DNA of 64,000 nucleotides from a phage, in assembly GCA_036439915.1 (NCBI GenBank), contig GCA_036439915.1_3065.1; one strand, given 5' to 3'. Both the position numbers and the translations under genes were made by a program. Positions 9,277-63,465 of this stretch are shown piece by piece (the stretch's first letter is position 1; each line of letters opens with the position of its first letter). The notes under the pieces are model-generated. The model was given only the letters and a program-made list of their open reading frames with translations, ran no database searches and had not been told where the DNA came from.

Positions 9277-9317
9277 AATAAACTCCTTTATTGTTTAATT
9301 ACAGGTGTATTTATAAC

Positions 9318-15962: not shown

Positions 15963-16811
15963 TTAATCAACTGCTATTGGATGAATAGCATTAAACTTAT
16001 GAAACGCTTCTGATTTTTCTTTGCGCGAAACACACATGCGAAGAACCTTTAATGGCTCGTCTTCTTCACCTAATGATTTTCGTTTTTCAATATTCGATGT
16101 TTTCCAACGAGCTTGCTCTGGAAACTCTCTATTGATTTGCTCAAGCGCTCTATTATGTTTTGAATTACTACGAATTGAACTACATCCGCCAGGAGCTTGT
16201 GCTTTTCCGGATACAACCAGATATTTGAACAAGGCCAAATGCGGATAACCTTGATTAATTAAATTGAGAAATGCGTACATATCTTCGCATAAATCAATTT
16301 TTCCATACCCAATTTGTTCTGTTGTAAGTTTTCCAAGGTCATACCATGTATTCGTGAATCCATATGAATTTTCACGATAATTACCCCAAGATGAAGTAAT
16401 TTTAAAAATAGGTAGACGAGCATGGCCATGATAATACCCGCAATCCATGGCATCTTCAACGTATTGAATTAATTCATAGAACTGTTCACGGGTTAATTGA
16501 TTAATTTTATCTACGCAGCGACGATCATCTTTCTTTCGCATTGAACTCATACGAATAGTAGTATCATCATCGATCATCCAAATTCGCTGACCTGCATACA
16601 TATCAGTAATTGCTTTACGAGTTCCAGCAATTCCATTAACATCATCAGGAATAGTTATAATTTTAGCTCTAGACCCATAAGCGTCATAATAAGCTTTTTC
16701 TTCGTGTTTACGTACTACAATATGAGGTTCATAATCAGATGGAAACATATCAAGGGCAGAAACTGCCCCTACGCGTTGATAGCTTGGAATTACGAATTGA
16801 ATCATTTCCAC
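15963..16811 (-). CDS. glycosyltransferase, possibly T2/T6-type HMC glucosyltransferase
   Basis: 282 aa, DXD-like IWMIDDD; occupies the T4 beta-gt locus but is shorter than T4 beta-gt. Confidence 0.5.
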   Translation of the reverse strand: MEMIQFVIPSYQRVGAVSALDMFPSDYEPHIVVRKHEEKAYYDAYGSRAKIITIPDDVNGIAGTRKAITDMYAGQRIWMIDDDTTIRMSSMRKKDDRRCVDKINQLTREQFYELIQYVEDAMDCGYYHGHARLPIFKITSSWGNYRENSYGFTNTWYDLGKLTTEQIGYGKIDLCEDMYAFLNLINQGYPHLALFKYLVVSGKAQAPGGCSSIRSNSKHNRALEQINREFPEQARWKTSNIEKRKSLGEEDEPLKVLRMCVSRKEKSEAFHKFNAIHPIAVD

Positions 16812-33210: not shown

Positions 33211-33681
33211 TTAATCATGTTTCCACACCCCATCGGTATTTGACCAAAGTCGCTGATTATCTGAACCTCGCCACAGCTTTTTGGTCGGAAGATTTTTCTC
33301 ATACTTCCCATCAATAATAACATCAACATATTTAAGCATTTCTAGTTGTTTAATATCTTCAAACTTGTACCCTGTCCACAACCAAATGCTTTTATTTGGA
33401 TAAAGATTTTTTACTGTTTGAACAATGCAATGAACAACATCTCGGTTATCAGGATAAAGAGGGTCTCCTCCAGTTATAGTTAATCCTTCTATATAATCAT
33501 TATTCAAACATTCAATTAATTGTTCTAGTGTTTCACCAGTGAATGGAATGCCATTTCTAGCATTCCATGTTGATTTATTATAACACCCTTCACATTTATG
33601 CAAACACCCCGTAACGAAAAGAACGACCCTGCATCCAGGGCCATTTACAAAATCGCAGGGATAAAATCTATCGTAATTCAT
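33211..33681 (-). CDS. nrdG: anaerobic ribonucleotide reductase activase NrdG (radical SAM)
   Basis: 156 aa, CxxxCxxC cluster motif (CLHKCEGC), same size as T4 NrdG. Confidence 0.85.
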   Translation of the reverse strand: MNYDRFYPCDFVNGPGCRVVLFVTGCLHKCEGCYNKSTWNARNGIPFTGETLEQLIECLNNDYIEGLTITGGDPLYPDNRDVVHCIVQTVKNLYPNKSIWLWTGYKFEDIKQLEMLKYVDVIIDGKYEKNLPTKKLWRGSDNQRLWSNTDGVWKHD

Positions 33682-35009
33682 TGGTGTTTAACCCTATGCA
33701 TGATTTCTTTATTTTTGCCAAGATTAAATCCGCGCTCGTTCGGATTCCCCAAATAGCCGCATGTTCTTCTTATTGTATTCATCTTTTTAGGATCAGTTTC
33801 TCCACAAACAGAACAAACAAATCCGTTTTCGGTTGGAGTCATTTCATGGGTACTTCCACATGTAAAACATTTATCTACTGGCATATTAACACCAAAATAA
33901 TCTAAATGTTGTGCAGCATAATCCCATACAGCCTCAAGACCTTTTAGGTTATTTTTCATATCAGGAAGTTCAACATAAGAAATGTGACCGCCTGTTGCAA
34001 TGAAATGATATGGGGCTTCGCGAGAAATCTTTTCAAACGGAGTGATATTTTCTTCTACTGAAACATGGAAACTATTAGTGTACCATCCTTTATCAGTAAC
34101 ATCTTTTACACTTCCATATTTTTCTGTATCAAGTTTACAGAAGCGATAACAAAGGTTTTCAGCAGGAGTAGAATACAGACTAAAAGCAAAACCGGTTCTT
34201 TCAGTCCACTGCTTAAGACGAGCATTCATTTTAGTTAAAATTTCCTGTCCAATATCGCGACCGGCAAGAATATTCAATTCGTGAATACCAATGTATCCTA
34301 GGGACACTGAACTTCTACCGTTTTTAAATAACTCAATTATATCGTCATCAGGTTTAAGACGAACCCCGAATGCACCTTCTTGATAAAGAATAGGAGCAAC
34401 AGTCGCTTTAACTCCTTTTAAGGAACTAATTCTACACATCAAAGCTTCAAAACATAAATCCATTCGCTCATTGAACAATTCAGTAAATTTCTGTTCATTG
34501 AACTGTGTTCCAATATAAGAATCTAACGCAATACGAGGAAGATTTAATGTTACAACACCAAGATTATTACGTCCATCAAGAATTTCATTACCAGTCGAAT
34601 CTTTCCATACGCCCAAGAAACTACGACAACCCATTGGAGAAACAGGAATAGATGAACCAGTGATAGCTTTGTTATTCTTAGCTGAAATGATATCAGGATA
34701 CATTCTTTTGCTTGCACACTCTAAAGCAAGCTGCTTAATATCATAGTTCGGGTCATCTTTATAAAGATTAACACCTTCTTCAACGAACATAACAAGTTTA
34801 GGGAAAATAGGAGTTATCCCATCACGACCGAGACCTTTAATGCGATTTTTCAGAATTGCTTTCTGAATCATTCGTTCAGTCCAGTCAGTTCCCGTACCAA
34901 ATGTAATTGTTACAAAAGGCGTTTGTCCGTTTGAACTAAAGAGAGTATTTACTTCATCATTATATTCAGCATGAGTCGCAAATTCATGCCCGTTTATATG
35001 AAACAACAA
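33678..35009 (-). CDS. nrdD: anaerobic ribonucleotide reductase NrdD, exon 2 (3' splice junction approximate, probably near 34965)
   Basis: C-terminal glycyl radical motif RTCGYL and zinc ribbon CxxC...CxxC; ORF-track start is TTG and likely lies inside the intron. Confidence 0.8.
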   Translation of the reverse strand: MLFHINGHEFATHAEYNDEVNTLFSSNGQTPFVTITFGTGTDWTERMIQKAILKNRIKGLGRDGITPIFPKLVMFVEEGVNLYKDDPNYDIKQLALECASKRMYPDIISAKNNKAITGSSIPVSPMGCRSFLGVWKDSTGNEILDGRNNLGVVTLNLPRIALDSYIGTQFNEQKFTELFNERMDLCFEALMCRISSLKGVKATVAPILYQEGAFGVRLKPDDDIIELFKNGRSSVSLGYIGIHELNILAGRDIGQEILTKMNARLKQWTERTGFAFSLYSTPAENLCYRFCKLDTEKYGSVKDVTDKGWYTNSFHVSVEENITPFEKISREAPYHFIATGGHISYVELPDMKNNLKGLEAVWDYAAQHLDYFGVNMPVDKCFTCGSTHEMTPTENGFVCSVCGETDPKKMNTIRRTCGYLGNPNERGFNLGKNKEIMHRVKHQ

Positions 35010-36003
35010 AATTTGGATAGTCCATAGATATGCAACGTTCTTTTATAGTGCTAGGATGAAAATTTAGCGCTTTAGCTGCTTCTATATAAGACGTATACTT
35101 AATACCGTCAACAACCACATATTCAGGAACTTTATGAATAGTAGTCTTAATACTCAAAACAAGAGGATGAGTTTCGACTTCACTTTCAGTGCAATTTAAA
35201 TATTCCGCTGCTTTTTTAAAACTTCTAAAAGTTTTATTTTTAAGCTTTATCGATACTTGTTTTTTACTTTTTCGACTATTGATATTATTTTGCACATGTT
35301 CCGTAGATCTTCCGTTTTTAGCATAATATTCAGCTACAGAAGATTTTATATTGTTTTTATGAGATTCGGATAACACTTTACCCTTATGAGCATCTCTTAA
35401 TTTTTGAATATGTTCTTCAGTATCCGGATGCTTATAAAACTTTTTACCGCCTATGGATTTATTTAAACATTTTTTGCTATAAAAATATTTACGTATGACC
35501 TCTTCTTCATGTTTTAATGCATCTTTATAACTATCAAATGTTTTTAAAATTATCCATTTAGTAGGTGTATCAGTTTTTAAGCGTTCATTTATATACTTAG
35601 ATGACGTTGTGTAAGTTTTCCAGTTTGTGGGCTTGTTTTTAATTGTTCTAAATTTTTTATAACCGATATAAATGTCGCCATTAGAAAACTTAACTAAGTA
35701 TGTAAATGCGTCTTTATCTTTTATTTTAGTACAACGTCTTTTTATCCATTTCATTGTTTCACCTCGTATTCATAAGATAATCTTATTTATACAAGATGAC
35801 TGCTGCATGTCGCCATGCAGATTAGACTATATCTTCATCTTTCGATGCCGGCCGTTTCGAATAGCATTAGCTTCTATTCTACACCGCTACATTCATCACG
35901 GTTAGTCGTTAGGCATTTAGTTTTTCTAAAAACATTTAGCACGGGATTGTCTACTAGAGAGGTTCCCCGTTTAGACCGGTTTTACATGAGCCTGAATTAA
36001 ATT
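34966..36003 (-). other. group I intron in nrdD (sunY-type), boundaries approximate
   Basis: interrupts nrdD reading frame; contains CTAAACGGGGAACCTCTCTAGTAGACAATCCCGTGCTAAAT core as in the remembered T4 nrdD intron; about 1.04 kb. Confidence 0.75.
34984..35754 (-). mobile_element. intron-encoded GIY-YIG homing endonuclease (I-TevII-like)
   Basis: 256 aa; YLVKFSNGDIYIGY GIY-YIG-like motif, linker repeats, C-terminal HTH-like segment. Confidence 0.7.
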
Positions 36004-36542
36004 AACTCATACGCCTGAAACGCATCGTATACGTCTTTTTCTGTTTTAGATTGGGCATAATTCAACGCATCAGTGATTTGCCATTTTTCCGCGTCCTCAA
36101 TATGTTTCGCATAGGTACGTTTAACATAAGGAGAAAGTACTTTATCTACATTCGCAAAAGTCGTTCCGCCATATTGATGGGAAGCAACCTGTGCGGTAAT
36201 TTGTGCCATAATTGCAGTAGCAACGCCAATTGATTTAGGAGTTTCAATCTGTGCATTACCGAGCTTAAATCCGTTCTCAAGCATTCCTTTTAAATCTACT
36301 AAACAGCAATTAGTAAATGGAAGAGCAGGGGAATAATCAATATCATGGAAATGGATAATTCCGCTTTCATGTGCTTTCATAATAAAAGACGGGACCATAT
36401 TTTTGGCAATGTGTTTAGACACAATACCAGCCATAAGGTCCCGTTGAGTTGGAAAAACACGAGAATCTTTATTAGCATTCTCGTTTAAAAGGTCTTTATT
36501 AGTTTTATGAATCAATCCTTCAATTTCTTTTTCAATTGTCAT
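36004..36542 (-). CDS. nrdD: anaerobic ribonucleotide reductase NrdD, exon 1 (5' splice junction approximate)
   Basis: 181-aa ORF matching NrdD N-terminus; stops at intron start. Confidence 0.8.
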
Positions 36543-62444: not shown

Positions 62445-62520
62445 TGGTCGAGGCAGTAGGGATCGAACCTACGACCTAGGACTTAGAAGGTCCTTGCTCT
62501 TCCTTCTGAGCTATGCCCCG
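62445..62520 (-). tRNA. tRNA-Arg (UCU)
   Basis: cloverleaf folded by hand; anticodon loop CUUCUAA; T-loop GGTTCGATCC; CCA encoded. Confidence 0.8.
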
Positions 62521-62524
62521 TAAT

Positions 62525-62600
62525 TGGGGTGACCGATGGGAGTCGAACCCATGACTACGAGAATCACAATCTCGAGTTCTACCAACTGAACTACGGCCAC
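62525..62600 (-). tRNA. tRNA-His (GUG) candidate
   Basis: cloverleaf with anticodon loop TTGTGAT, discriminator C, CCA encoded; no encoded G-1. Confidence 0.6.
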
Positions 62601-62715
62601 ATTAATACCTACTCCAACAATCAAGATGTCTTCACACGAAATTAAGAGAAGAGTGATCAGTTCAACCCCTATAATCGCGTCAAGTAGATATTAATGTGAC
62701 AGTTGTCACAAATTT

Positions 62716-62789
62716 GGCGGACGTGATAGGATTCGAACCTATAACCAATCGCTTAACAGGCGATCGCTCTGCCATTGAGCTACACATCC
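62716..62789 (-). tRNA. tRNA-Asn (GUU) candidate
   Basis: cloverleaf; anticodon stem ATCGC/GCGAT, loop CTGTTAA; T-loop TTCGAAT. Confidence 0.65.
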
Positions 62790-62793
62790 AAAT

Positions 62794-62880
62794 TGGTGGG
62801 GAGTGATGGAGTCGAACCACCCGAGTCGTAATGACAATGAATTTACAGTCCACACCGCTACCTCTACGGGATAACTCCCC
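62794..62880 (-). tRNA. tRNA-Tyr (GUA) candidate, type II with long variable arm
   Basis: 87 nt; acceptor GGGGAGT/ACTCCCC; loop CTGTAAA; variable stem GTC/GAC; D-arm imperfect. Confidence 0.5.
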
Positions 62881-62892
62881 TAATTCATAATT

Positions 62893-62967
62893 TGGTGGCC
62901 CTGGGTGGAATTGAACCACCATCTGGCGATTATGAGTCGCTTGCTTGAACCTTCCAGCTACAGGGCC
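62893..62967 (-). tRNA. tRNA-Ile/Met (CAU)
   Basis: acceptor GGCCCTG/CAGGGCC; anticodon loop CTCATAA. Confidence 0.7.
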
Positions 62968-62968
62968 T

Positions 62969-63044
62969 TGGTGCTGATTGACGGAATCGAACCGCCGACC
63001 TTCTCATTACAAGTGAGTTGCTCTACCTACTGAGCTAAATCAGC
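62969..63044 (-). tRNA. tRNA-Thr (UGU)
   Basis: canonical cloverleaf; anticodon loop CTTGTAA; T-loop TTCGATT. Confidence 0.8.
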
Positions 63045-63049
63045 AAAAC

Positions 63050-63139
63050 TGGCGGAGGTGATAGGATTCGAACCTATGAATCGCCGGAGCGACTGCCGGT
63101 TTTCAAGACCGGTGCATTCAACCACTCTGCCACACCTCC
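63050..63139 (-). tRNA. tRNA-Ser (UGA), type II
   Basis: 90 nt; anticodon stem CCGGT/ACCGG, loop CTTGAAA; long variable arm. Confidence 0.8.
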
Positions 63140-63141
63140 AG

Positions 63142-63215
63142 TCTCCATACAAGGATTTGAACCTTGGACCTCCTGATCCCAAATCAGGCGCTCTACCAAA
63201 CTGAGCTACACGGAG
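63142..63215 (-). tRNA. tRNA-Pro (UGG), CCA not encoded
   Basis: anticodon stem CCTGA/TCAGG, loop TTTGGGA; abuts tRNA-Ser as in the T4 Pro-Ser dimer. Confidence 0.75.
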
Positions 63216-63225
63216 TAAATTAAAT

Positions 63226-63299
<74 letters not shown>

Positions 63300-63304
63300 A
63301 AATT

Positions 63305-63391
63305 TGGTGCGAGAAGTGGGACTCGAACCCGCAAGGAAATCATTCCGCAGCATTTTAAGTGCTGTGCCTTTACCAATTTGACCATTCTCGC
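63305..63391 (-). tRNA. tRNA-Leu (UAA), type II
   Basis: 87 nt; anticodon stem CAGCA/TGCTG, loop CTTAAAA; long variable arm. Confidence 0.8.
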
Positions 63392-63392
63392 G

Positions 63393-63465
63393 CTGGGAAT
63401 AAAGGACTCGAACCTTTGCATCCTGGAATCAAAATCCAGTGCCTTACCAACTTGGCTAATTCCCA
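63393..63465 (-). tRNA. tRNA-Gln (UUG), CCA not encoded
   Basis: acceptor TGGGAAT/ATTCCCA; anticodon loop TTTTGAT; abuts tRNA-Leu as in the T4 Gln-Leu dimer. Confidence 0.75.

Follow-up and report, generated by a model that had tools for sequence, protein, structure and literature searches.

A predicted IA2 group I intron with an I-TevII-related endonuclease gene at the T4 insertion site in nrdD of a T4-like phage

The nrdD (sunY) intron of phage T4 and its endonuclease I-TevII are classic objects: the intron is described as self-splicing and the enzyme is listed as active in a review which also describes the role of the late-promoter motif associated with the ORF (PMC2988022). Auto-repression by I-TevII has been proposed, not demonstrated (PMC2988022), and the sequence flanking the T4 ORF is reported to mimic the homing site (PMC3984707). 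Of the related enzymes of T4-like phages, I-TevI has a zinc finger and cuts 23-25 nt upstream of its own insertion site, and the Seg-type genes lie between genes, not in an intron, with their products cutting far from their own insertion point (PMC2988022). The DNA analysed here (64,000 nt, the window) contains a diverged sister of the T4 nrdD intron and I-TevII, an element of textbook type which about 45 public phage genomes already carry; it holds little for discovery and no surprise for the specialist.

nrdD exons and intron boundaries

The source DNA is that of a T4-like (Tequatrovirus) phage: the 24 kb around nrdD are 95-97% identical to many Tequatrovirus genomes and, as in T4, nrdG, nrdD and gene 49 follow one another, with all three genes on the minus strand, as are all elements of the original prediction (Table 1). 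That nrdD is split in two by an insert of about 1.04 kb, as had been predicted, is borne out by two ORFs with complementary matches to the Pfam NRDD profile, one (35997-36542, minus strand) covering profile positions 1-141 and the other (33678-35009, minus strand) covering positions 145-562 plus the glycyl-radical domain. The boundaries were set by alignment with the annotated T4 nrdD gene, which is a two-piece join in GenBank, and with the intronless nrdD of phage PD112. They place the 5' splice site between 36005 and 36004 and the 3' splice site between 34958 and 34957, and the ends given earlier for the insert (34966-36003) thus had to be moved by 8 nt and 1 nt, respectively. The intron starts with UAAUUU after the exon-terminal U, and its last base (34958) is G. 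Joining of the two exons gives a 605-aa NrdD which is identical to T4 NrdD at 597/606 positions. Comparison with an intronless gene, the check suggested at the outset, gave a PD112 junction which matches the spliced junction base for base; nrdD is not contiguous in the window. A 400-nt query of the joined exons is covered without interruption in 620 phage records. At the other end of the gene, nrdG (33211-33681) overlaps the nrdD stop codon (33678), and the mobC gene which intervenes in T4 is absent.

Table 1. Features of the nrdD locus, all given in window coordinates
Feature	Position	Strand	Details
nrdD exon 1	36005..36542	-	538 nt; ends ...GCG UAU GAG U; from Pfam NRDD profile positions 1-141, T4 nrdD alignment and spliced translation
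nrdD exon 2	33678..34957	-	1,280 nt; starts AU GAA GUA AAU; from Pfam NRDD positions 145-562 and Gly_radical
Predicted group I (IA2-type) intron	34958..36004	-	1,047 nt; inserted where the annotated T4 nrdD intron is; junction contiguous in intronless phages
Predicted ribozyme core	35803..36011	-	P1, P3, P4, P5, P6, P6a, P7, P7.1, P7.2, P8, P9; no P2
td-identical 42-nt stretch	35934..35975	-	intron nt 30-71 (J3/4, P4, P5, start of P6); blastn 42/42 to T4 td
Hairpin over ribosome-binding site	35759..35799	-	GAGG within 35760-35767 paired; upstream of the endonuclease ORF
TATAAATA, T4 late-promoter consensus	35784..35791	-	upstream of the endonuclease ORF; position conserved with T4
Homing endonuclease gene	34984..35754	-	256 aa; GIY-YIG domain (about 1-105), three short helices, two helix-turn-helix units
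3'-terminal hairpin, P9.2-like	34969..34989	-	GCAUGA / UCAUGC; contains the ORF stop codon; from fold

Ribozyme core and comparison with the T4 nrdD intron

The insert had been thought to contain a group I intron core, and Rfam model RF00028 reaches 74.1 bits at 35803-36040 of the minus strand (E 1.3e-18; the gathering score is 50). This match was found only when 1.4 kb was scanned: both scans of the whole window, with the gathering score and in E-value mode, gave tRNAs only. As these scans miss a 74-bit intron, another intron in the window could have escaped them as well, and such a failure on an ORF-bearing intron matters for automated pipelines.

P1 is formed between exon positions 36005-36011 and the guide sequence at 35985-35992, where exon AUGAGU pairs with guide GCUCAU and the U at the exon end stands opposite G, giving a U.G pair at the splice site. 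P2 is missing because only six bases separate P1 and P3. When the first 216 nt are folded to minimum energy, P1, P3, P4, P5, P6, P6a, P7.1, P7.2, P8 and P9 are recovered. The helices, including the P7 pseudoknot, were also written on an alignment of three versions of the intron (window, F1 type and T4), in which each of the 53 P1-P9 pairs is a standard pair in every version, and 13 pairs are changed on both sides (two each in P3, P4 and P7.1, three in P7.2 and four in P6a). None of 500 shuffles equalled the observed pattern and displacing the partners by one to three columns left at most two such pairs; with three sequences the statistics are modest, but the pattern is the one that a conserved ribozyme predicts. 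P6a alone takes three forms, namely GUUUUU/AAAAAC (window), GUUC/GAAC (F1) and CAGC/GCUG (T4). P7.1 and P7.2, which lie between P7 and P3', are both present, and the five both-sided changes in these helices are all seen in the comparison with T4. Extra helices between P7 and P3' are a criterion of the IA subgroup, and based on the core, P1 and the P7.1/P7.2 features the intron is classed as a group I intron of subgroup IA2 with predicted self-splicing activity.

With regard to the 3' end, four of the six pairs of the terminal hairpin are changed on both sides relative to its T4 counterpart (GUAGAG / CUCUAC), as counted by eye, and a P10 pairing of UUCA with UGAA of exon 2 is possible as read from the sequence only. 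No convincing P9.1 pairing which would loop out the ORF was found in the window, where the only candidate, UUGUAU/AUAUAA, is weak and competes with the hairpin over the ribosome-binding site, whereas the T4 intron is able to form P9.1 from CUGUUUAU/AUAAACGG.

Overall, the window intron shares with the T4 nrdD intron its gene, its insertion site (after ...UAUGAGU), its GCUCAU guide, its helix set with P7.1 and P7.2 and without P2, the location of the ORF after P9, and the late-promoter motif, the ribosome-binding-site hairpin and the terminal hairpin with the stop codon. The two differ in length (1,047 nt in the window and 1,033 nt in T4) and in sequence, their cores being roughly 73-75% identical (73% over 204 aligned positions when nt 6-206 of the window core are compared with a T4-type intron), with P6a, P7.1, P7.2 and P8 rewritten yet paired. 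In comparison, the exons of the window and T4 are about 94% identical.

The endonuclease gene and the homing model

The 256-aa ORF contains the GIY-YIG-like motif 'FTYLVKFSNGDIYIGY' on which attention had been drawn to it, and its matches to Pfam SegE_GIY-YIG (E 6.8e-6) and NUMOD1 are both above the cut-off. The description of the gene as apparently intact and of I-TevII type is upheld, as the ORF is of full length and aligns from end to end with T4 I-TevII (258 aa) at 56% identity. A word-indexed search of 5.8 billion protein clusters returned two clusters only, the I-TevII and the window-type one; another 945 relatives, all more distant, came from an exhaustive search with a profile. The product has the GIY-YIG alpha/beta fold and is related to other GIY-YIG nucleases (a 5hmC-specific restriction enzyme, UvrC, T4 EndoII, Slx1 and Eco29kI) and to the DNA-binding domain of I-TevI; the latter structure (1I3J) is matched at E 6e-4 by a family profile of 30 sequences, which was needed for this purpose as a single-sequence search of the PDB sequences with the ORF product gave no match. 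The C-terminal part forms a modular DNA-binding region of NUMOD-type helices and helix-turn-helix units, in agreement with the HTH-like segment foreseen for it. Three short helices are present which look NUMOD3-like by eye; Pfam gave no match to NUMOD3.

Eight residues (Y19, Y29, G31, Y48, S51, S52, E83 and N98) do not vary among 30 relatives, and the ORF has every one of them. An hhalign comparison with I-TevI (probability 93%) places Y19 on I-TevI Y6; over E83 and N98 the alignment is of low confidence, being one or two positions off I-TevI E75 and N90. N44 stands opposite the catalytic R27 of I-TevI, with K46 opposite K29, and hence the classical catalytic Arg is not evident. The Tyr of GIY, the Tyr-x-Gly of YIG, the catalytic Glu and the metal-binding Asn are in place as Y19, Y29, G31, E83 and N98. 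The I-TevII / Seg subfamily, including T4 I-TevII, has W-K/R in the catalytic-Arg region instead, and T4 I-TevII, which is listed as active (PMC2988022), shares the window residues opposite the R27 region. The free-standing Seg-type GIY-YIG endonucleases of T4-like phages share the Pfam SegE_GIY-YIG match and the W-x-x-Y-x-x-SS-K, E and LN motifs, behind which they too have modules of NUMOD type, and I-TevI shares the fold class and the type of DNA-binding modules at only 19% identity to the family of the window enzyme (hhalign). The dN/dS ratio against T4 I-TevII is about 0.25 in each of three protein segments at a dS of about 1.5 (Nei-Gojobori), and both lineages have therefore long been kept as working proteins.

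The late-promoter motif TATAAATA occurs in six copies in the window (at 9308, 35784, 50343, 57201, 61731 and 63804), fewer than the 11.3 expected by chance, and all six are on the minus (coding) strand. The hairpin over the ribosome-binding site has a folding energy of -19.4 kcal/mol (z -4.4), with none of 200 shuffles folding as well. Its T4 counterpart, from which it differs by a 9-nt insertion, folds likewise, and by analogy with T4 the hairpin would hide the ribosome-binding site. A similarity to the homing site upstream of the window ORF (13/19 positions by eye, 16/36 over 36 nt) was dropped as evidence for mimicry, because the match is no better than that of shuffled sequences, 225 of 300 of which score as high.

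No other clear mobile element was predicted for the window, and this holds for everything that was searched: the T4 genes segF, segA, mobA, mobB, mobC, mobD and segB have no tblastn match in the 64-kb window, the GIY-YIG/NUMOD profile matches only the intron ORF within it, and none of the eight ORFs on the minus strand that are 90 aa or longer and have no T4 counterpart contains an endonuclease domain. The phage thus lacks the free-standing endonuclease genes found in the corresponding part of the T4 map. The tRNA cluster at 62448-63465 (minus strand) has ten genes compared to eight in T4, with no segB-like ORF within, and a 282-aa ORF at 15963-16811 (minus strand), which has no T4 counterpart in the regions compared, matches Pfam TAGT (TET-associated glycosyltransferase; E 1.8e-9). 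Between gene 49 and its intronless nrdD, phage PD112 (L005 351-1172) has an 822-nt gene for a 'hypothetical protein' which is absent from the window, and which could be a free-standing mobile gene beside an empty intron site.

Taken together, we consider it very probable that the window contains a mobile IA2 group I intron in nrdD, at the exact site of the T4 nrdD (sunY) intron, with an I-TevII-related endonuclease. The anatomy, homology and fold of the element are seen in the sequence comparisons, as are RNA changes that keep the structure and purifying selection, while splicing, late expression, cleavage and homing are taken over from T4. In the pre-mRNA, the ribozyme core is formed by the first roughly 200 nt of the intron. 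Self-splicing, initiated by guanosine, would ligate the two exons and give back the 605-aa NrdD, with the endonuclease ORF carried along downstream of P9 and upstream of the terminal hairpin. In longer early transcripts the hairpin would hide the ribosome-binding site of the ORF, which in combination with the ORF's own late-promoter motif is proposed to allow synthesis of the endonuclease only late in infection. When phages with and without the intron infect the same cell, the enzyme would then cleave the uninterrupted nrdD near the insertion site, and the intron would be passed on as the break is repaired with the intron-bearing copy as template (homing). T4 I-TevII cuts 13-15 nt into exon 2.

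The GenBank records of this variant would have it otherwise, since they list two nrdD coding sequences plus an endonuclease, which amounts to two separately translated nrdD genes around a free-standing endonuclease gene, without RNA splicing. The downstream nrdD ORF does have an in-frame TTG start, but a fragment starting there would open with 17 intron-encoded residues, and removal of exactly 1,047 nt gives an uninterrupted, T4-like frame. In addition, the insertion site is that of the self-splicing T4 intron and the group I core is complete and has compensatory changes, and we find such an arrangement scarcely credible. A late stage of the homing cycle is a further alternative, with an intron that still splices and an endonuclease that is a well-preserved relic without cutting activity, inherited only vertically. 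In support of this, the ORF is frameshifted in F1 and 236Ecol005PP, which carry this intron type, and the gene is therefore dispensable; the ORF of T4 type is truncated in phage U5, the canonical Arg is not evident, and 620 records, representing most relatives, are without the intron, yet there has been no sweep. However, the window ORF is full length, copies at least 99% identical to it are found in about 41 of 45 records, none of the family-invariant residues is missing, dN/dS is 0.25, and the promoter motif and regulatory hairpin are intact, and a relic is thus improbable. The decayed copies are what the homing cycle predicts, and the U5 intron (AY262145), which occupies the same site and is of T4 type with a core identical to that of T4, shows that an nrdD intron can persist after decay of its ORF.

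An active enzyme with a target different from that of T4 I-TevII, which cuts another nrdD variant or also acts as repressor of its own promoter, deserves more thought, although we still regard it as rather unlikely. The identity to I-TevII is only 56%, with changes all through the DNA-binding part, exon 2 beside the two intron types differs at several synonymous sites, and auto-repression has been suggested for the T4 enzyme (PMC2988022). Conversely, insertion site, domain order and length are all as in I-TevII, the operator-like similarity is not significant, and the exon flanks vary among carriers of the same intron type. No exon-flank signature is tied to the intron, because carriers of the same type differ in their flanks and the intronless PD112 shares the exon 2 start of the window.

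Distribution, age and relationship with the td intron

The window intron type is found in about 45 phage records and the T4 type in about two dozen, compared to the 620 with uninterrupted nrdD, and the nrdD intron is therefore present in roughly one Tequatrovirus-like record in ten. The ORFs of 41 phage records are at least 99% identical to the window ORF. Records of the window type usually annotate nrdD as two coding sequences without an intron, and most of these could be corrected using the splice sites found here. A literature search found no description of the window-type intron lineage. From the contrast between the exons (about 94% identical), the core (about 73-75%) and the enzyme gene, which is near synonymous saturation, it follows that the intron lineages are much older than the nrdD genes which host them. 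This echoes the idea of a "recent transfer of old introns" that Sandegren and Sjoberg reportedly put forward in 2004.

The T4 td intron shares its subgroup with the window intron, and is identical to it over 42 nt of J3/4, P4, P5 and P6 and 88% identical in the J8/7-P7-P9 stretch. It differs in host gene and in the position of the ORF, which in td is far upstream of P9: the td matches to P4-P5 (td 592-633) and P6-P9 (td 1409-1519) of the window are about 775 nt apart, and the T4 td ORF sits in the P6a loop. The nrdD intron of T4 itself matches td at only 37/48 positions in the region of the 42-nt tract. This 42-mer is found in 246 phage records at 277 places, so that about 31 genomes carry two copies, which fits the presence of a td intron and a window-type nrdD intron in the same genome. 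The tract may have arisen by intron-to-intron gene conversion within one genome, and shuffling between the T4 td and sunY introns in the laboratory is said to have been observed by Bryk and Belfort (1990); strong conservation from a common ancestor is another possible origin.

A 25-nt motif of the core, TGAAGATATAGTCTNANCTGCATGG (J8/7, P7 3' strand and P9), is found exactly in at least 120 IMG/VR viral contigs (loci L008-L127). Among the matches listed, only two contigs have it in nrdD and nearly all have it elsewhere, which suggests a very widespread phage intron family with an almost invariant P9 hairpin. One of the two nrdD cases (L034 1718-2535, IMGVR_UViG_3300010279_000001) is a distant phage nrdD, with 43-52% aa identity, that contains two ORF-less group I introns at roughly aa 190/191 and 289/290 of the window NrdD. 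The second of these introns is 77% identical to the window core and has a 3' end of the same design as in T4, and an ORF-less intron with such a 3' end is in favour of the endonuclease gene having been inserted between P9 and the terminal hairpin.

A pair of enzymes of 56% identity at one homing site, together with the 42 nt identical to td, forms a small natural data set on the divergence and recombination of homing enzymes and ribozyme domains. We would go further only speculatively, to a second old lineage which rivals the T4 type at the nrdD homing site, and which is a natural chimera, with a P4-P5 domain acquired by gene conversion from a td intron of the same genome and an enzyme with shifted preference among nrdD alleles; we doubt that all of this applies. 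If true, two homing elements would compete in nature for one site in the nrdD gene of Tequatrovirus phages, and RNA domains would be shuffled in the wild.
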